From: an uncultured bacterium | GTDB taxonomy: Bacteria; CAIJMQ01 | Reading direction: 5' to 3' | Length of the DNA: 18,226 bases | Assembly: GCA_964573245.1 (NCBI GenBank) | Contig: CAZNJA010000025.1 | Coordinates: 1 to 18,226, forward strand | Shown here: piece after piece, positions 2,944 to 18,226 of the stretch | Numbering within the stretch: position 1 is the first letter of the stretch | Layout: every line of letters starts with the position of its first letter | Position numbers and translations under genes: made by a program | The notes under the pieces: generated by a model | The model's input: the letters and a program-made list of their open reading frames with translations, nothing else | Databases searched by the model: none | What the model was told of the DNA's origin: nothing

Positions 2944-3600
2944 ATGGTAGGGAACTTATTCAAGGGAAAAACCAAAGGTTTCACCTTAATAGAACTTTTG
3001 GTTGTTATTGCTATTATCGGGATTTTGGCTGCTATACTGATGCCTGCATTGCAAAGGGCAAGAGAGTCCGCAAGAAAAGCCGCTTGTGCTTCTAATCTTA
3101 AACAAATAGGTTTGGCAATAAATGTCTATTCACAAGATTGGAACGAAAACTTTCCCCAATCCCATGCAACAACTCCCAATACTGACAATGATTTTAGGTT
3201 ATTGATAAACAATGGGTTATATGCAGTCGCACCCGTTTTTTTCTGCCCAAGTGATAGAAACGGTTCCAAAAGTATGAAAGACAATACGTTCTTTTCATTA
3301 GAGGGATGGGCTAATTGTAGTCCTACCGATCCTTGTATTTCATACGCTTATGCTTTTGACCTTGACGCAATGGACTATTCTGATACAGCTATTGCGCTTG
3401 ACCAATATGGTAATTATGGTGCACAAACTTTCACTAACGAAAACAATAAAAACCATAAGAATCTTGGCATAAATGCACTCTATGTGGACTCACGTGTTGA
3501 ATGGATAACACTTGACCCTGCTTTCGTTGAGGTGGCAGATAAGATCCCGAATTGGAATAATAATCCGGGTGACCGAGGTTCTTTGTATAATCCACATTAA
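2944..3600 (+). CDS. Prepilin-type N-terminal cleavage/methylation protein, DUF1559-like
   Basis: [34 protein letters not shown]...C.SNLKQIG, FCPSD, SY, and C-terminal NH...[11 protein letters not shown] (H-X9-DG-like). Confidence 0.92.
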
Positions 3601-3668
3601 CCACATCGTGTTCATAACATGTTACGATGCTTAAAAATGAAAAGTGTAAAAATAGGGGAGGTGAAAAA

Positions 3669-4541
3669 ATGAGAAAGCCGATGAGACATTTTTTAAAAGG
3701 ATTTACTCTTATAGAACTTCTAGTCGTTATAGCCATTATAGGGATATTGGCTGCTTTACTTATGCCTGCTTTAAATAGAGCAAGAGAATCTGCAAGACGC
3801 GCTACCTGTAAGTCAAATCTTGAACAGATAGGCAGAAGTATGTTTATGTATGCAGAGGACTGGAAAAACTTTTTCCCACGGTCACGAGATAATGCTTATA
3901 CTGTTAGAGATTATCAGTTATTTGTGAATCTAAGTGCGGGTAGATGGCATTGGGGTGGGACACAATTTGCTATGGTAGAGGCAAAATATGGAACCGGCGC
4001 AATGTTGTTTTGCCCAAGTGATAGAACCGCGCGAAAAGATGATAATAATGTACTTAATGGCAACGGACTAAGTTCTCCTTTAGGTTCAAGTCTTCCATAC
4101 ACCGCTACAAATAAACGCGAAGTTTCATATGCTTATGCTTATAACATGACACCGATGTACATATTCCCCAAAACAAATGGGGGCCTGGGTGCATTCGGCA
4201 CTAAGACTACTACACATCAACAAACAAATCCTGCCCTTCCTCTTTTTACAAATAACGATTTGAATGGAACTACGTCGGTTTTAGCAGTTGATATATCCGG
4301 GAATGTAAGCACCGCTGCAGCTACTCCCAGCCACTGGGAATGGAATCTAGACAATGCCACTTTAAAGAATCACGGAACCGCAGGAGTCAATATACTCAAA
4401 GCTGACGGTCATGTGATATGGTCCGATTTAACTTGGGGAGATGCTTGGGATTTTGTCCGCGATACAGAAAGTGCAGCAGTACAGATTCCCAATCACCTTA
4501 TTACCAATGATATATATCGTGGTTTTTTGGCAAACCCATAA
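3669..4541 (+). CDS. Prepilin-type N-terminal cleavage/methylation protein, DUF1559-like (paralogue)
   Basis: [59 protein letters not shown]. Start moved from 3627 to ATG 3669, which follows GGGGAGGTG. Confidence 0.92.
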
Positions 4542-4724: not shown

Positions 4725-5021
4725 ATGGCTGAAGCCAAAGTTTATTCTTTAAGGATAGGCAAGAAGGAAGAAAATGTTTTCAAGAGTAAAGGCGCGCGCG
4801 GAGCAGCTTTAAAAGCGGCTACACGTGGCTTGAAGGATAAAGACGGTCTTATAAAATTAAGAGAACATGGCAAGAAAAAAGACGGTCTTTATCGCGTCCA
4901 TGTTTTTAAAGGTTCTGTGCGGAAAGTTGCTAAACCCGCAAACGCTCCCGACTGGATGCCTGCTATGATTAACAAACCAAAAGTCAGCAAAGTGAGAGTA
5001 GAAAAATTAAAAGGAATATAA
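4725..5021 (+). CDS. Non-histone chromosomal protein MC1 family
   Basis: 98-aa basic protein carrying the MC1 motifs in order: Y/F-x-LR, VF...R.AALKAA.RG, I.LREHG, VHVFKG, P.N.P.WMP..I.KP.V.K...EKL (compare Methanosarcina MC1 AALKAANRG, IRLRERGTKKVHVF, PAWMPEKISKPFVKK). Confidence 0.9.
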   Translation: MAEAKVYSLRIGKKEENVFKSKGARGAALKAATRGLKDKDGLIKLREHGKKKDGLYRVHVFKGSVRKVAKPANAPDWMPAMINKPKVSKVRVEKLKGI

Positions 5022-5224: not shown

Positions 5225-6019
5225 ATGATAGGTAAACTTATTAGGCTTGAAAGAATTATGGACAGAAACTCTGGCAAAACCGTTATTTTACCTATGGACC
5301 ACGGTCTTACCATGGGTCCTATAGAAGGTCTTGTCAATATGAAAAAAATCATTGACGAAGCAGTAAAAGGCGGCGCTAATGCTGTTATTCTGCATAAAGG
5401 AATAGTCAGAGCCGGACATAGAAGTTCTGGACAGGACATAGGGCTTATTATCCATCTCACGGGAAGCACTTCTTTAAGCCCTTCGCCGAACGCCAAAGTT
5501 GATATATGCTCTGTCGAAGAAGCCATAAAACTGGGTGCAGACGCCGTCTCCGTTCATGTTAATTTGGGCGACCCTGCCGATGGCGCAATGCTTAGACATT
5601 TCGGAGAAGTATCGAGAAAGTGTCAGCAGTGGGGGATGCCTTTGCTTGCCATGATGTACACCCGCGGCGATAAAATAAAAAATCAATTCGACGTCCAATA
5701 TATAAAACACGCCGCAAGAGTAGGAGCGGAACTCGGTGCGGATATTGTGAAAGTAAATTACACAGGAAATCCTAAAACTTTTGAAGAAGTGGTAAAGGGT
5801 TGTCCTGTTCCCGTAGTTATTGCAGGCGGAGAAAAGTTGGAAACAGAGGCAGACTTATGGAAAATGATACAAGGAGCGCTTTCTGCCGGAGCCGCAGGCG
5901 TTTCAATAGGAAGAAATATTTTTCAGCATAAGAAACCGAGTCTACTCATAAAAACAATAGGTAAAATCGTGCATGAAAACCTTCCTATAAAAGAAGCGGT
6001 AAAAATAATGAAAAAATGA
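5225..6019 (+). CDS. aroA': 2-amino-3,7-dideoxy-D-threo-hept-6-ulosonate synthase (DhnA-type class I aldolase family)
   Basis: GKLIRLERI, PMDHG..GPI.GL, HKG, DAVSVHVN.G, WGMPLLAMMY.RG, HAARVGAELGADIVKVNY, PVVIAGG, GRNIFQ; coupled to DHQ synthase II. Confidence 0.92.
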   Translation: MIGKLIRLERIMDRNSGKTVILPMDHGLTMGPIEGLVNMKKIIDEAVKGGANAVILHKGIVRAGHRSSGQDIGLIIHLTGSTSLSPSPNAKVDICSVEEAIKLGADAVSVHVNLGDPADGAMLRHFGEVSRKCQQWGMPLLAMMYTRGDKIKNQFDVQYIKHAARVGAELGADIVKVNYTGNPKTFEEVVKGCPVPVVIAGGEKLETEADLWKMIQGALSAGAAGVSIGRNIFQHKKPSLLIKTIGKIVHENLPIKEAVKIMKK

Positions 6020-7023
6020 AAAAACTGTGGATTAAGGCCATACCCTGGAAAAAAGAAGTCGTCACGACAGCTCTGGAAAGCGGAGCGGATGCTGTATGGG
6101 TAGAAGAAGGTTTTAGCGAAAAAGTGAAACAGCTCGGCAAAATTACCACTATTGCCAAAGACGGAGATATTAAGATAGATGAAGATGTAATCTATGTGCA
6201 AATCCGAAGTAAAGAAGACGAAAAGAAAGCGCTGAAATTAAGCAAATCAAAGACAGTTATATTGTCAACACCCGATTGGAGTATTATTCCGCTTGAAAAT
6301 CTTATTGCACAAACAAAAGGGATAATAGCTGAAGTGAATAGTTTCGATAAAGCAAAAACAGCGCTTCAAATATTAGAAAAAGGTGTGGACGGTGTTTTGC
6401 TTAATACCGACAATTTAAACGAAGTTAAAAAAACCGCCAATCTTATTAAAAATATCTCTGAAAAACTAAGTTTAGTTACAACCAGAGTTATTAACATTAA
6501 AGGTTTAGGAATGGGCGATAGAGTATGTGTTGATACTTGTTCCAAAATGAAGCTCGGCGAAGGAATGCTTATAGGTAGTGGTAGCACGGCTATGTTCCTC
6601 GTCCATTCAGAAACCATTGAGAATCCTTACGTAGAAACCCGCCCTTTTAGAGTTAATGCCGGCGGATTGCATGCTTATACGCTTTTGCCTGAAGGCAAAA
6701 CAAAATATCTTTCTGAGCTAAAAAGCGGCGATGAAGTGCTTATAGTTAATTCCAAAGGTGATACCCAAGTTGCCATAGTAGGTAGGGTAAAGATAGAGAG
6801 ACGTCCTATGATGTTGGTTGAGGCAGAAGTAGGGAAAGGAAGAGTTTCTCTCATATTGCAAAATGCCGAAACAGTTAATCTCACTCAACCTGATAATTCC
6901 CCAATTTCAGTGGTTTCTCTTAAAAAAGGTTCCGAAGTTCTTGCTTATGTATCTGATTTAACTTCAGAATATACAGGCAGACATTTTGGAACAAAAATAG
7001 AAGAAACTATTGAAGAGAAATAA
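6016..7023 (+). CDS. aroB': 3-dehydroquinate synthase II (oxidative deaminating)
   Basis: DW.IIPLENLIA, LEKGVDGV, GDRVCVDTC, GEGMLIGS, RPFRVNAG, YLSELKSGDEV, VGRVKIERRP, LQNAETV, GRHFG..IEE.I.EK. Confidence 0.95.
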   Translation: MKKLWIKAIPWKKEVVTTALESGADAVWVEEGFSEKVKQLGKITTIAKDGDIKIDEDVIYVQIRSKEDEKKALKLSKSKTVILSTPDWSIIPLENLIAQTKGIIAEVNSFDKAKTALQILEKGVDGVLLNTDNLNEVKKTANLIKNISEKLSLVTTRVINIKGLGMGDRVCVDTCSKMKLGEGMLIGSGSTAMFLVHSETIENPYVETRPFRVNAGGLHAYTLLPEGKTKYLSELKSGDEVLIVNSKGDTQVAIVGRVKIERRPMMLVEAEVGKGRVSLILQNAETVNLTQPDNSPISVVSLKKGSEVLAYVSDLTSEYTGRHFGTKIEETIEEK

Positions 7024-13857: not shown

Positions 13858-16800
13858 ATGAGAAAGACCTCTCTTGTATTATTCTTCTTATCACTTTTTA
13901 TTTTCACAATCTCAATTTTCTTTAACTCAAACGCCCGAGAAAACCGCTCTTCCCATCCATGTAGTTGCAACCTTGAAAAAGCGCTAAAGAAAGGTAACTG
14001 GCAGGAAGCGGTAGAAGAAGCAGAAGCTCTCATAAAACAAGACCCTATGTCATTGGAAGCCCAAGACGCTTATCTTTGGTTAGGGTTACATCACAAGTCC
14101 CAGCATGACTTTCCGAAATCCATAGAAACTTATAAAAAAGCGGCGAAATTATTTCCCGATACATGGACTTCCGCGGAAGCCAATGCTCGCATAGGTTGTG
14201 ATTATTATCGTATGAACAATTTCGGCAAAGCGTTGGAATATTTCCGCAAATCCGCGTCCGAAGCAAAAACCTGGCAACAAAGAAAATACGCGTCTGCATG
14301 GGCAAAATGGGTCCATTTCGCTTTAAAAAGACAGGGGGAAAAGCGGCTCGTTTCCAACTGCGCCACAAAATCTATCAATTACTATTTGAATCTAAAAGGT
14401 ATAAATATAGATAAAGAAAAACTTGCCGAGTCATTAACATTGGAAGACGGGCTTGTTCCTCTTTCCGGAATACTCGGATTTTTAAAAGAAGAAAACATAG
14501 AACTCAGGGCGGTAAGCTGCCCGTTTAATAGAATAAGAGAATTTGATTTGCCGATCGCCGCGGTAGTGAAACCTTCTCACATGATAGTTATTGAAAATAT
14601 CGGCGACAAGATAACGGTTTACGACCCCGTTTTGGGCGAAGTTCCCTATTTCGAGAAAGAATTGGCAAAGATTTGGGACGATAAGGTTTTAACGTTTTCT
14701 ACTCCTGAAGATAAAGAATTTGCTTCACTGAACGAAACCGAACTCAGCAACGTTCTTCTCGGGACATGCTTTTGCTGTCCCGAGACACCGCCGCCGCCGC
14801 CGTGCGAAGAGGATGATTCGGATGACTGTCCTAACTGCAACCAAGAGCAAGTAACGATTTCGGACGGGACAGAAACAGGTAACGGCGAAGGCGGAAAAGG
14901 CCCCGGCAACGGAAACGGCGGCAACTGCGCCGGCGGAATTTGCGTCCATAAGTTCGGCTCCCCCAAAATCAGCGTTCAAACATCCTCGTTATCATTGACG
15001 GTAAAAAACAGTCCCATAGGATACACTGCTTCTTTAGGCCCCGATGTTGACGTCCGGCTTATTTTCAATTCGGACCTTGCGCATTCGGGAGTTTTCGGCA
15101 ACGGTTGGCATTCCAATTTAGAAATAAAGATAAGGGAGAATCCCGACGATTCGGTAACAGTTACCAGAAGCACGGGATATGATGATACCTTTATCTACTC
15201 CGGAGGCGAATATCATCCGCCCGTAGGGATAAGCAATAAACTGAGCAAAAACCCCGATAACACATTTACATTGGAATTCGTAAAAAGCCATAAAAAATTT
15301 CACTATGATTCGCACGCAAACGGCGGGAAAATTCTTGCCGTAGAAGACCAAAACGGCAACACATTAACCTATCAGTATGACATAGACGATAATCTTGCTT
15401 ACATAATCGATGCAATAGGAAGGGTGACCGAGATAGACGCCGACGATTCGGGAAGAATAACGCTTATAACCGACCCGTTGGAAAGAGAAGCGTCTTTTAC
15501 CTACGATATTGAAAGCAACCTCGAAGAGGTTCAGAATATGGCAGGAGATACTTTCACCTACACATACGACGATTACGAGCCGGACGATTACAAAAATGTT
15601 ACTTCCGTTACCACTTCGAACGGAACCTATTCTATTCAATATGAGGGATGCGGATATGAAATTTGGGTGGCGCAGATAACCACCCCCGAAAGTGAACAAC
15701 ATCAATTTTGGGGAGGAGGAAGTTTTCTGGATGTAAAACATGTTGACCCGAAAGGCGAAATTACATCCTTTTCTGCGGACGACTGCATGGGCTGGCCTTA
15801 TTACGGAGATACTAACAAAATAGTAGATGCTGCGGGAAATTATATAGCATATACTTATGATGATTACCGAAACCGGACCGAAATAAAAGATAAAAGGGGA
15901 AATGTAACCCTTTACACTTTTGATTCCAAACATAATGTAACTTCAAAAACCGACCCTGATGAAAACACATGGTCTTATACTTATGACGGAAGAAACAACA
16001 TAATTTCAACTGAAGACCCCCGCGGAAAAATAACGGAATATGTTTACGGCGACTCGGATATTCTTCTTTCCATCACGGAAAAAGACCCGCAAAACAGTAT
16101 TCTCTCCCAAATAACCTACGACTACACGGACGCAACATTCCCGTGTCTGAAAACTTCCATGACGGACGCCAACGGCAATACGACATATTACAACTATGAC
16201 GATTACGGCCGAATGGAAAGCATAACCGACCCGGAATCAAATGAAACTACTTTTACTTATGATATTGTTGATAGAAAAATATCCATGACAAATGCAAATG
16301 GAACCACTTACTACGAATATGACGATTCGGACAGAATAACAAAAATAACCCATCCCGATACAACCTACCGCCAGTATTCATATGATTGCTGTAACCTTCA
16401 GTCCGTAACGGATGAAAATAGCAATACCACCTATTACGAATACGATGACATGGCCCGCCTTACTCAAGTCGAAGACGCGGAAGAAAATGTCACGACATAC
16501 GAATATGACGAAGCAGGCAATCTCATTTCTTTAACAGATGCGGAAAATAACACTACAACTTATACTTATGATACCGTAAACCGCCTAAGTTCTATAACCT
16601 ACCCGTTAGACGACAGCGAATCCTACTTATACGACTCTAACGGCAACTTGATAGCGAAAACAGACGGCAATGGAAACAATACTTCCTATACCTACGATGA
16701 AAATAACCGCTTAATTGAAACAAAAGTTTTACAGTGGGAATATCCCGCGATGCTTCAGGGCACTACTACGCTCTTTCATATGGATGAGGGTTCCGGCCCA

Positions 16801-18226
16801 ACCGTTTATGATTCCTCTGCAAACAATAATGACGGCACTATTTACAGCGCGTCCTGGACAGAAGGAAAATTCGCCGCGGGATTATTTTTCAATAATCCAT
16901 ATCCGTATGTCACTGATTATATTTACACTACTTTACCCGTATCATCGTTATTTTCTACGGCAGAGAAAACAATCACCGCTTGGATTAAACCGATAAGTTT
17001 TTACTATCAATATGGTGAGGCAAAACAACTAATAATCAGCGACCTCACCGAAAATATCGGCATCTTCAGGCAAGAAATCGAAAGCCTCGACAGAATATGG
17101 GTATACAACAATGACGGGGGCACGGATACAATCGGAATCCCATACGATATTGACGAATGGGTCCACATTGCCCTTGTCCACAGCAACGGGACATTATATG
17201 CGTATAAAAACGGTGATTTTGTCGATTCCGTCTCAAGCGGCAATACTATAGGCATGAACTATCAGGACGATGTACTGATAATTGGCTCCGACCCCGAGAT
17301 GTACGGCTTCTCTTTCAGCGGCAAAATAGACGAAGTCGCTACCTACAATCGGGCTTTGACCCCCCAAGAAATCGAACAACTTGCAGATGCAATTGTTACC
17401 GACACCACCCTTTCTTCCGTTGCCTATACCTACGACGAAGTAGGCAACAGGACACAGATGGAGGAAAATGTTAACGAAGACACAAGACTAACCAGCTATA
17501 CATACGACTACCTGAATAGGTTAACATCAGTTACAAACCCGGACGACAATACGATAACATACGACTACGATGCAAACGGCAACCGTATTGAAATGGTCGA
17601 CTGCGAAGATACCACAATCTATACCTACAACGACAATAACCAGCTTGAGACAGTAACAACTTCAGAAGGCGCAACAACCTACGAATATGATTCTTTAGGC
17701 AACCAGACAGTTGTCGAATATCCCAACAGCGCATATACAGAATATACCTACGATTCGTATAGGAACTGGCTGACTTCACTCGTGAACCGGGATTCTGCAG
17801 ATACAGTCCTATCTTCCTTCGATTATACCTATGACGATGTCGGCAATCGGTTATCAGTAACAGAATTCGACGATTCAGAAGTTAGTTACACATATGACGA
17901 CACCTATCAGTTGATAAGCGAAGTGCGAACAGGCAGTAATGCATATTCAATAAGCTACACCTATGACGACGTAGGAAACAGATTAACCAAAACAAAAAAC
18001 TCCGTCACCACAGAATACACCTACAACGACAACAACCAACTGACTTTCAAAGTGATAGACATCGATACAACAATTATGTACACCTATGATGACAACGGCA
18101 ATTTGATATTCAAGACAGATGGTTCTGATACAACACTCTACGAATGGGACTACAATAACAGACTGATAGGAACGACGGACGATGGAGGAGGGACGAGTTA
18201 CGAATACGACGGCGACGGAAATCGTC
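13858..18226 (+). CDS. Large secreted RHS/YD-repeat protein with N-terminal TPR and C39-like peptidase domains and an inserted LamG domain (partial, at least 1456 aa)
   Basis: Absent from the track because there is no stop in the window. Manual translation: MRKTSLVLFFLSLFIFTISIFFNSNA (signal); TPR (AQDAYLWLG...YKKAAKLFPD, AEANARIG..YY....FGKALEYF); C39-like (SNCATKS, LPIAAVVKPSHMIVI, VYDPVLG, IWDDKVL); FGNGWHSN; many YTYD..GNR/YD..NRL repeats; LamG (FHMDEGSG, TITAWIKP, WVHIALV, FSGKIDEVATYNRALT). Confidence 0.93.
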   Translation, partial: MRKTSLVLFFLSLFIFTISIFFNSNARENRSSHPCSCNLEKALKKGNWQEAVEEAEALIKQDPMSLEAQDAYLWLGLHHKSQHDFPKSIETYKKAAKLFPDTWTSAEANARIGCDYYRMNNFGKALEYFRKSASEAKTWQQRKYASAWAKWVHFALKRQGEKRLVSNCATKSINYYLNLKGINIDKEKLAESLTLEDGLVPLSGILGFLKEENIELRAVSCPFNRIREFDLPIAAVVKPSHMIVIENIGDKITVYDPVLGEVPYFEKELAKIWDDKVLTFSTPEDKEFASLNETELSNVLLGTCFCCPETPPPPPCEEDDSDDCPNCNQEQVTISDGTETGNGEGGKGPGNGNGGNCAGGICVHKFGSPKISVQTSSLSLTVKNSPIGYTASLGPDVDVRLIFNSDLAHSGVFGNGWHSNLEIKIRENPDDSVTVTRSTGYDDTFIYSGGEYHPPVGISNKLSKNPDNTFTLEFVKSHKKFHYDSHANGGKILAVEDQNGNTLTYQYDIDDNLAYIIDAIGRVTEIDADDSGRITLITDPLEREASFTYDIESNLEEVQNMAGDTFTYTYDDYEPDDYKNVTSVTTSNGTYSIQYEGCGYEIWVAQITTPESEQHQFWGGGSFLDVKHVDPKGEITSFSADDCMGWPYYGDTNKIVDAAGNYIAYTYDDYRNRTEIKDKRGNVTLYTFDSKHNVTSKTDPDENTWSYTYDGRNNIISTEDPRGKITEYVYGDSDILLSITEKDPQNSILSQITYDYTDATFPCLKTSMTDANGNTTYYNYDDYGRMESITDPESNETTFTYDIVDRKISMTNANGTTYYEYDDSDRITKITHPDTTYRQYSYDCCNLQSVTDENSNTTYYEYDDMARLTQVEDAEENVTTYEYDEAGNLISLTDAENNTTTYTYDTVNRLSSITYPLDDSESYLYDSNGNLIAKTDGNGNNTSYTYDENNRLIETKVLQWEYPAMLQGTTTLFHMDEGSGPTVYDSSANNNDGTIYSASWTEGKFAAGLFFNNPYPYVTDYIYTTLPVSSLFSTAEKTITAWIKPISFYYQYGEAKQLIISDLTENIGIFRQEIESLDRIWVYNNDGGTDTIGIPYDIDEWVHIALVHSNGTLYAYKNGDFVDSVSSGNTIGMNYQDDVLIIGSDPEMYGFSFSGKIDEVATYNRALTPQEIEQLADAIVTDTTLSSVAYTYDEVGNRTQMEENVNEDTRLTSYTYDYLNRLTSVTNPDDNTITYDYDANGNRIEMVDCEDTTIYTYNDNNQLETVTTSEGATTYEYDSLGNQTVVEYPNSAYTEYTYDSYRNWLTSLVNRDSADTVLSSFDYTYDDVGNRLSVTEFDDSEVSYTYDDTYQLISEVRTGSNAYSISYTYDDVGNRLTKTKNSVTTEYTYNDNNQLTFKVIDIDTTIMYTYDDNGNLIFKTDGSDTTLYEWDYNNRLIGTTDDGGGTSYEYDGDGNR

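Follow-up and report, generated by a model that had tools for sequence, protein, structure and literature searches.

The window (the whole stretch of 18,226 nucleotides that was analysed) carries on its forward strand an ORF (13858..18225) that is open at its 3' end, where it runs off the contig, and encodes at least 1456 aa. Translation and Pfam searches gave the domain order signal or anchor, TPR, C39, leader-like segment, Cys-rich linker, DUF6531 plug and YD/Rhs repeats, with an inserted LamG domain interrupting the repeats; all of these features lie on the forward strand. Residues 1–26 (13858..13935), read by eye, comprise MRK and a hydrophobic stretch of about 19 residues, and were judged to be a Sec signal peptide or signal anchor. 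The TPR repeats (residues 42–137, 13981..14268; Pfam TPR_2, E 9.5e-12, with TPR_16 and TPR_1) are followed by a C39 papain-like peptidase fold (residues 163–281, 14344..14700; Pfam and structural alignment). A tether, FSTP (residues 282–285, 14701..14712), spans the interval between the end of the aligned C39 fold (residue 281) and K286. It leads into the leader-like segment K286–G302 (14713..14763, or to 14766 with T303 as position +1; translation, alignment and model) and the Cys-rich segment T303–C327 (14764..14838; TCFCCPETPPPPPCEEDDSDDCPNC; translation and alignment). Downstream lie DUF6531, the N-terminal plug of Rhs shells (residues 400–445, 15055..15192; Pfam, 26.4 bits against a cut-off of 24.1), and the YD/RHS repeats (15442..18195; Pfam RHS_repeat, E 9.6e-69, 15 stretches), within which Pfam placed a Laminin_G_3 domain (residues 1022–1172, 16921..17373). 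Both the YD/RHS repeats and the DUF6531 plug are present, as in the Rhs (YD-shell) family.

The Pfam Peptidase_C39 profile (PF03412) matched residues 168–282 over profile positions 13–130 of 133, with 30.9 bits against a cut-off of 22 and 35.3 bits in a genome-wide search. PCAT1, LahT and ComA were the best Foldseek matches of the C39 model (E 3e-6 to 3e-5). Structural alignment with VIA-align gave a Z of 13.4 against 6mpz_B (rmsd 2.2 Å over 118 residues, model range 14–132, equivalent to residues 163–281) and of 12–13 against PCAT1 and ComA, while phmmer against PDB sequences returned only a marginal match (7n87_A, E 0.27). The canonical C39 fold ends at residue 281; as modelled, the leader-like segment is therefore an extra element and not part of that fold.

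Conservation was assessed in an alignment of 41 relatives of the window protein (A2), from which P0015, P0035 and P0043, three matches from a search of representative proteins, were excluded because they matched through many weak repeats and had no C39 domain. The catalytic columns are occupied in the window protein by C168 (codon tgc, 14359-14361), H241 (cac, 14578-14580) and D256 (gac, 14623-14625). Cys is found in 39 of the 39 rows having the column and His in 40 of 40, with Asp in 36 of 40 (E in two, N in two). The window protein lacks the oxyanion-hole Gln at −6 from the Cys; its Gln sits at −9. Read by eye, the −6 Gln is present in 6 of the 14 rows from the window's clade retaining the C39 domain and is not conserved across the Rhs-linked family; it is also present in all six rows that lack the leader motif, two of which are short at the N-terminus, with shifted printed offsets. 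The need for this Gln has been questioned for LahT, where it lies 4.3 Å from the oxygen.

Residues 286–303 read KEFASLNETELSNVLLGT (14713-14766, by translation). With G302 as −1, F288 falls at −15, L291 at −12, E295 at −8, L296 at −7, V299 at −4 and L301 at −2. The initial annotation had proposed such leader-type spacing directly after the C39 domain, and translation together with the Pfam domain boundaries confirmed these positions. Among 417,801 residues in ORFs of at least 150 aa from the window's genome, the strict pattern L...EL..[IV]..G occurred three times (about 0.0002 expected per 25-residue stretch) and a looser pattern 49 times (about 0.003 per 25 residues). The leader-like segment is not a chance match.

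The motif is in register in 35 of the 41 rows of A2, the six others being four standalone C39 proteins and two ABC-fused PCATs. Over these 35 rows, position −1 is G (31), S (2) or K (2) and position −2 is G (20), L (14) or V (1). Position −4 is I, V or L in 28 rows; L (21), M (11) and I (1) occur at −7, E (24), D (3) and Q (2) at −8, and L (27), V (4) and I (3) at −12. The conservation in homologues on which the annotation's reading depended was thus found, and the distant homologues carry a textbook LSxxE[LM]xx[ILV]xGG. In these distant relatives, with 19–32 % identity to the window protein in A2, G at −2 (20 rows) is followed by G, S or K at −1 and then by xCxCCP; examples are LLSKKEMKISWGG followed by VCDCCPE and LTKKEMEDIKGG followed by VCFCCPE. 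Their segments agree with the leader consensus given in the cited part of the literature, namely L(−12)xxxE(−8)L(−7), a hydrophobic residue at −4 and GG, GA or GS (PMC6363468).

The window's own segment departs from canonical leaders. V299, L296, L291 and E295 provide the hydrophobic residues at −4, −7 and −12 and the acid at −8, but L301-G302 replaces Gly at −2 with Gly, Ala or Ser at −1, and the segment is internal, behind a Sec-type N-terminus, instead of N-terminal on a PCAT-exported peptide. When 16 leader segments were compared with 18,950 NCBIfam models, four matched GG-leader families (TIGR04149, four segments; TIGR03949, two; TIGR01847, one), all below the cut-offs; 12 of the 16 matched none, and the window's own segment matched no NCBIfam leader model at E up to 10. 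The xCxCCP part of the Cys-rich segment is retained in most homologues, with C at +2 in 30 of the 35 rows. In 29 of 35 rows the tether, measured from W273 to −12, is 14–21 residues long. Insertions of 13 or 24 residues lengthen it in 6 of the 14 rows of the window's clade keeping C39, all six being homologues and not the window protein itself. About six residues separate the end of the C39 fold (281) from F288, a gap so short that docking in cis could be strained.

Position −2 co-varies with the active site. Leu or Val stands at −2 in 15 of 15 rows of the window's clade. All 14 rows that have L or V at −2 and keep C39 show Ala after the catalytic Cys and L, M or T after the catalytic His, whereas all 19 rows that have G at −2 and both columns show Gly after the Cys and Tyr or Phe after the His. 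The co-variation sets one clade against the rest and therefore represents a single evolutionary event. The ancestral site was probably Gly-Gly and would have become Leu-Gly in the window's clade. This shift would have been accompanied by Gly to Ala beside the catalytic Cys and by Tyr/Phe to Leu/Met/Thr beside the His, substitutions that may widen the S2 pocket.

AlphaFold2 was applied to residues 27–330 with alignment A1 (13 close sequences). The TPR part was modelled as all-helical with block pLDDT of 85–98, but the C39 domain and leader reached only 31–71, and this model was replaced by one based on the 41-row A2. The A2 model has a mean pLDDT of 82.7, with block means of 89 (residues 280–289), 97 (290–299) and 67 (300–309), and packs the segment on the C39 domain. 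Residues 293–298 (−10..−5) form a helix and residues 300–301 (−3, −2) a strand or bridge. This helix/extended pattern is that of bound leaders, which are helical at −10..−4 in the PCAT1-CtA structure and at −11..−4 in LahT, with P1-P3 extended in the latter. A trans complex prediction of C39 residues 150–283 with residues 284–319 scored 0.46 (best of three controls, 0.02), with runs agreeing in at least 79 % of contacts and partner pLDDT of at least 56. Of 157 solved complexes, 116 reached the mark applied to this score, as did 2 of 215 mismatched pairs, yet passing scores of 0.60 or lower comprised only 18 of the 157 solved complexes and both passing mismatches. Complexes like that of C39 and leader have already been solved (6MPZ, 6V9Z), so the pass may reflect this likeness. 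The trans prediction lends weak support to binding of the segment by the C39 domain.

On balance, we think it probable that the protein's own C39 domain cuts the G302–T303 bond after export, in cis or between copies. The protein would then be an Rhs (YD-shell) protein that is exported by Sec and brings its own maturation cassette, in which an N-terminal TPR-C39 module is followed by the C39 domain's own substrate. L291–G302 would bind the substrate groove in the fashion of a bacteriocin leader: a short helix would place L291, L296 and V299 in the hydrophobic groove, and the active-site cleft would hold L300-L301-G302 in extended form. C168, H241 and D256 would cut after G302, between bases 14763 and 14764, acting within one chain or between copies. 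TPR-C39, still bearing the leader at its C-terminus, would thereby be separated from the Rhs shell, which would begin with the Cys-rich segment; the likely purpose of the cut would be release from an anchoring or chaperone module at the N-terminus, or else to expose the Cys-rich end. The annotation's suggestion that the protein, with enzyme and leader fused in one chain, may cut itself near G302 gains support from the motif conservation and the modelled packing.

The annotation had also offered the alternative of an uncleavable Leu-Gly pseudo-substrate, which we regard as unlikely but worth weighing. The Leu-Gly segment would here fill the C39 groove uncut as a tether or latch, either keeping the protease closed until a signal displaces the segment or fastening TPR-C39 to the Rhs N-terminus. 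Cleavage may still have occurred in the ancestral GG forms. Such a role is consistent with the replacement of Gly at −2 throughout the window's clade, with the very narrow cleft of the solved PCAT1, which accounts for GG specificity, and with the absence of the oxyanion Gln from the window protein. The tight modelled packing of the segment (block pLDDT 97) likewise fits a stable complex better than a transient one, but a cleaved leader could stay bound equally well. Cys, His and Asp are, however, invariant in the window's clade, and Gly at −1 and the hydrophobic ladder are still under selection. The residues beside the catalytic Cys and His have changed along with −2, which looks like a re-tuned working site and not like decay. 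These correlated changes weaken the alternative but leave it some probability.

Less probable than the latch is a purely structural or adaptor role in which the active site has no part. The amphipathic helix and Gly hinge would simply pack on the C39-like domain, which would act as a binding module in the manner of its inactive counterpart in HlyB, and their likeness to a leader would be left over from an earlier function. Non-catalytic C39-like domains score nearly as well as peptidases in the VIA-align comparison (8dck_A and 7sgr_A, Z 13.1; 3zua, Z 12.5), and the missing oxyanion Gln points the same way. Against this, C39-like domains are defined in the cited part of PMC6363468 by loss of the Cys, which is retained without exception in A2, and the full leader consensus including GG is kept in relatives of low identity to the window protein.

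Three C39 matches were found in the window's genome (93 % complete), in open frames of 475, 1463 and 357 aa. No ABC part was seen by eye in the other two C39 ORFs (472 and 348 aa), and a C39 profile search with ORFs read by eye revealed no PCAT or C39-ABC fusion in this genome. A degenerate DNA pattern encoding E-[L/M/V..]-x2-[hydrophobic]-x-GG-x-C-x-CC-P was also used to scan genome contigs for split forms. Five of the 15 matches were real, and all five had C39 fused directly upstream. The other ten were open frames without C39 or Rhs features, mostly of 31–97 aa and at longest 257 aa, and approximately equalled the number estimated for chance. No leader-Rhs protein without a fused C39 was present among the matches to this pattern, which demands GG and CxCCP, so that other split forms could be missed. 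That the segment is instead a substrate or signal for another machine, a PCAT exporter or a C39 protein acting in trans, is very improbable: GG leaders normally act in trans with PCATs and the genome encodes two further C39-domain proteins, but none was seen to be an ABC fusion, the leader is internal behind a Sec-type signal and 285 residues, the true motif-scan matches carry their own C39, and tether length is constrained.

In the known systems, C39 peptidase and double-glycine leader are two separate molecules, a transporter-borne enzyme and its peptide substrate. The window protein shares with the C39 domains of PCAT/AMS systems and their leaders (ComA/ComC, LahT, PCAT1/CtA) the fold, the Cys/His/Asp triad, the hydrophobic residues at −4, −7 and −12, the acid at −8 and the Gly at −1, with GG or GS in distant family members, and its modelled helix at −10..−5 matches that of bound leaders. 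Unlike these systems, it joins the enzyme to a leader that follows it in the same polypeptide, and it has no ABC transporter; instead of a peptide it carries an Rhs shell exceeding 1100 residues, its clade has Leu at −2, and the oxyanion Gln is not conserved. It would also lie outside the cytoplasm, because it is behind a Sec-type signal. Viral polyprotein leader proteases, such as potyvirus P1, and the self-processing domains of large secreted toxins cut in cis. They make a single cut at their own C-terminal boundary, after which the product is kept or released; the analogy is one of logic, as these protein families are unrelated to the window protein and their triggers differ.

The survey of polymorphic toxins by Zhang et al. 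(2012) mentions C39-related papain-like domains in such toxins, and the window protein resembles the releasing peptidases described in its cited passages in that a peptidase inside an Rhs-type polymorphic toxin is proposed to process its own chain (PMC3482391). HINT, ZU5, PrsW, caspase-like, MCF1-SHE and other releasing peptidases are named there, whereas Tox-PLC39 is listed as a C-terminal toxin domain; an N-terminal C39 with a tethered GG leader is not among the domains in those passages. According to the relevant passages of PMC10684867, the T6SS Rhs effectors Tse5, RhsA, Rhs1 and TseI undergo intrinsic N-terminal autoproteolysis and DUF6531 acts as the N-terminal plug in Tse5. The proposed event is alike in that an N-terminal fragment is cut off an Rhs shell near the DUF6531 plug. 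T6SS effectors are, however, cut at the start of DUF6531 (between K47 and P48 in Tse5) without a dedicated protease domain and by an unclear mechanism (PMC10684867), while the cut proposed here falls some 60 residues before the plug and would be made by a recognizable cysteine protease. The export route also differs, being Sec for the window protein and T6SS for effectors of the Tse5 type.

The module TPR-C39-leader-Cys-rich-DUF6531-Rhs was also found in Planctomycetia and Omnitrophota MAGs. A search based on A1 found the gene only in the window's genome among the nine genomes of its phylum and not in the other eight with this query; in the corresponding search of genome contigs, none of 60 pattern matches was confirmed. 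We tentatively suggest, as a possibility with somewhat less than even prospects, that the module is a self-contained and previously undescribed maturation cassette serving Rhs/teneurin-like shells that diderm phyla (Planctomycetia, Omnitrophota and the small phylum of the window) export by Sec. In it, a C39 peptidase with its own bacteriocin-type leader in cis would make one cut after export, and in the window's clade two substitutions, next to the Cys and the His, would have changed its specificity from Gly-Gly to Leu-Gly. No paper uniting C39 with Rhs/DUF6531 as a leader-protease in cis was found within the literature searched. If correct, an exported chain that contains both the enzyme and its leader would offer a compact single-turnover model of leader recognition and a new mode of N-terminal processing of Rhs toxin shells, which is still poorly understood even for T6SS effectors, according to the cited part of PMC10684867. 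It would also mark an Rhs protein family in little-studied phyla. The GG and LG clades would together provide a natural experiment on the role of the narrow S1/S2 cleft in specificity, a matter of practical interest because LahT-type proteases serve as leader-removal tools. Should the Leu-Gly specificity hold, the enzyme would be the first of the C39 family to have a residue other than glycine at P2.

No further Rhs sequence is assembled in the window's genome beyond the contig end, and the insertion point of Laminin_G_3 in the window ORF is where homologous loci carry a stop codon and a second gene. In one such locus, L020, the second gene carries the RHS core (PF03527). The next ORF after the approximately 940-aa homologues is in the same frame and only three bases on, and a recoded stop was considered. 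This was rejected, as the downstream ORF has its own ATG, with a purine-rich stretch upstream and a signal-peptide-like start.

The segment lies in an ORF on the forward strand (13858–18225) that encodes at least 1456 aa and is open at the contig end. By eye, the protein begins with MRK and a hydrophobic stretch, either a Sec signal or an anchor. Pfam places TPR repeats at residues 42–137, a Peptidase_C39 domain at residues 168–282 (30.9 bits against a cut-off of 22), DUF6531, the N-terminal plug of the Rhs shell, at residues 400–445, 15 RHS-repeat stretches and a Laminin_G_3 domain at residues 1022–1172 (16921–17373). LpxB, ExbB/ExbD and a SurA-like protein are also encoded in the window, which makes the host a diderm and means that the protein is exported at least as far as the periplasm.

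The initial annotation had placed a double-glycine-like leader directly after the C39 domain. Translation of 14713–14766 gave the residues claimed, K286–T303, with Phe at −15, Leu at −12, Glu at −8, Leu at −7, Val at −4, Leu at −2 and Gly at −1 (G302). The strict leader pattern occurs three times in the 417,801 ORF residues of the genome, equivalent to approximately 0.0002 expected occurrences per 25-residue stretch. Conservation is a stronger argument against chance than this rarity. A word-indexed search with residues 140–460 yielded 12 metagenome homologues (46–60 % identity, 856–993 aa), all 12 of which keep F-A-S-L-x3-E-L-x2-[IV]-x-L-G-[TSA]-C-x-C-C-P. Searching 1.84 billion representatives exhaustively with phmmer, with residues 150–345 as the query, yielded 32 proteins at E≤1e-3, from which P0015, P0035 and P0043 were left out of the alignment because their matches rest only on many weak repeats. 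The alignment comprised 41 rows (28 new representatives, the 12 close homologues and the window), with the motif in register in 35, bearing out the expectation that homologues would conserve it. The six motif-less rows were four standalone C39 proteins and two PCATs, in which C39 is fused to an ABC transporter. Among the 35 motif rows, position −1 was Gly in 31, Ser in two and Lys in two, and position −2 was Gly in 20, Leu in 14 and Val in one; L/V/I occupied −12 in 34, L/M/I occupied −7 in 33, E/D/Q occupied −8 in 29 and I/V/L occupied −4 in 28. Distant rows, with 19–32 % identity to the window, carried textbook-like leaders such as LLSKKEMKISWGG followed by VCDCCPE and LTKKEMEDIKGG followed by VCFCCPE. 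Counting against a leader, the window's own segment matched no curated leader model; GG-leader families were matched by only four of 16 scanned segments, every match falling below the family cut-off.

In the C39 alignment, the columns of the catalytic triad (Cys, His and Asp) were conserved. Ala follows the Cys, and Leu, Met or Thr follows the His, in each of the 14 rows that keep the domain and have Leu or Val at −2; in the 19 rows that have Gly at −2 and both columns, Gly always follows the Cys and Tyr or Phe always follows the His. In this alignment, position −2 co-varies with the two residues beside the catalytic pair, a pattern that amounts to a single clade split. Subsite maps of papain place the residue that follows the catalytic His in the wall of S2; by analogy, a bulky aromatic side chain would suit a cleft open to Gly only, and an aliphatic one a cleft that admits Leu. 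Trp273, which is conserved, is tethered to position −12 by 14–21 residues in 29 of 35 rows, and this kept length argues for a geometric constraint. Two points stand against cleavage: the cleft described for PCAT1 is very narrow, which is at odds with Leu at −2, and the window protein lacks a Gln at the sixth position before the Cys, a residue that is not conserved in the family.

Extra residues (13 or 24) separate C39 from the leader in six of the 14 Leu/Val rows that keep C39, all of them homologues (P0004, P0006, P0007, P0009, P0011 and P0013); the window has no such insert. The insert, of the type NWITSVLELVFGR, is an amphipathic stretch with a terminal [FCS]-G-[RKQ] and may represent another leader-like element in degenerate form. 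Homologues with Gly at −2 carry a second conserved motif, approximately LGG-x2-3-NPN[TV], 8–15 residues past the GG site and after CxCCP (for example LGGRGDNPNTE and LGGPEDNSNVE), which was found even in members lacking the Cys motif.

AlphaFold2 with only 13 close sequences gave no usable model of the C39 and leader part. With the 41-row alignment, mean pLDDT was 82.7 and the highest-confidence block was the leader itself (residues 290–299, pLDDT 97). The best structural alignment of this model was to LahT (6mpz_B; Z 13.4, rmsd 2.2 Å, 118 residues), and the alignments to LahT, ComA and PCAT1 all stop at residue 132 of the model (residue 281 of the protein); the Pfam match stops at residue 282. 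The leader-like segment thus lies outside the C39 fold. As modelled, the segment is helical at residues 293–298 (−10 to −5) and forms a strand or bridge at 300–301 (−3 and −2). This predicted shape is that of the leaders in the solved complexes of PCAT1–CtA, where the bound leader is helical from −10 to −4, and LahT, where the helix spans −11 to −4 and P1–P3 are extended. Prediction of a complex between residues 150–283 and 284–319 scored 0.46, against 0.02 for the best of three controls, with at least 79 % of contacts agreeing between runs and a partner pLDDT of at least 56. Of 157 solved complexes, 116 reached the mark applied, as did two of 215 mismatches; only 18 of the 157 and both passing mismatches did so at scores of 0.60 or less. 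The prediction gave weak support, and the score may show likeness only, because similar complexes have already been solved.

After Sec export, the leader segment would dock in its own C39 domain, or in that of a neighbouring copy, and be cut after G302. Such a cut, approximately 60 residues before the DUF6531 plug, would detach TPR-C39 from the shell and its Cys-rich N-terminus. It could serve to release the shell from an anchor, to take off a chaperone-like TPR module or to expose the CxCC end. For T6SS Rhs effectors, PMC10684867 describes an N-terminal cut at the plug by an unclear mechanism, whereas the putative cut here lies upstream of the plug and would be made by a dedicated protease within the protein. 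For cleavage in trans, no PCAT able to use the leader was seen in the genome (93 % complete), its other two C39 ORFs being read by eye. These encode a 472-aa protein in which C39 stands between a signal sequence and a long tail (G000:C49; L011:547-1965, − strand) and a 348-aa protein that has a C39-like domain and whose C-terminus, by eye, carries TPR-like repeats (G000:C76; L013:1156-2202, + strand); neither has a leader-like segment past C39 or, by eye, an ABC part.

The C39 enzyme family, this leader type and Rhs shells are each already known. In the parts consulted, a 2012 survey of polymorphic toxins (PMC3482391) places a C39-like domain among the C-terminal toxins and names other releasing peptidases, and the only C39 fusion mentioned in a 2023 review of leader proteases is an engineered one. 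A full-text literature search found no publication joining C39 to Rhs or DUF6531 in such an arrangement. RHS repeats or DUF6531 were present in 15 of 22 motif-carrying representatives. By eye, plug-like sequence also follows in P0022 and P0034, a hydrophobic stretch follows the site in P0044, and four others end within 36 residues past it. Two family members have teneurin-type NHL propellers. Scanning one genome per species with a degenerate DNA pattern gave 15 matches, five of them real (two Planctomycetia, two Omnitrophota and one unclassified MAG); in all five, a GG site comes directly after a fused C39 domain. Of the nine genomes of the window's phylum in the collection, only the window's own yielded the gene.

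Six of seven related metagenome loci (L016:7881-12713, L020:2103-6782, L015, L017, L018 and L021) encode the shell in two adjacent genes. Gene 1 (approximately 940 aa) ends in NNRLIQI. Gene 2 starts from an ATG of its own and encodes a signal peptide as well as Cys-rich and YD-repeat regions; an RHS core was recognised only in the L020 copy. The window protein, which shares 56 % identity over 273 residues with gene 2 of L016, unites both parts through the inserted LamG domain. Tc toxins have a two-protein cocoon, which the split shell recalls. An in-frame stop inside the gene, after ETKIR at approximately 2249 of L019, beyond which homologous sequence continues in frame, reflects a disrupted copy or else an error in sequencing.

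Elsewhere in the window, a 98-aa ORF (4725–5021, +) matches non-histone chromosomal protein MC1 (Pfam, E 2e-19), an archaeal family that here shares a genome with LpxB and ExbB/ExbD. At 5225–7023 (+), a DeoC/LacD-family aldolase adjoins 3-dehydroquinate synthase II (PF01959, E 2.8e-128); together the two form the archaeal-type entry to the shikimate pathway. Prephenate dehydrogenase lies at 1929–2825. Two neighbouring proteins (2944–4541, +) have an N-terminal methylation (prepilin-type) motif and DUF1559, and are pseudopilin-like, of a kind known from PVC-group genomes.
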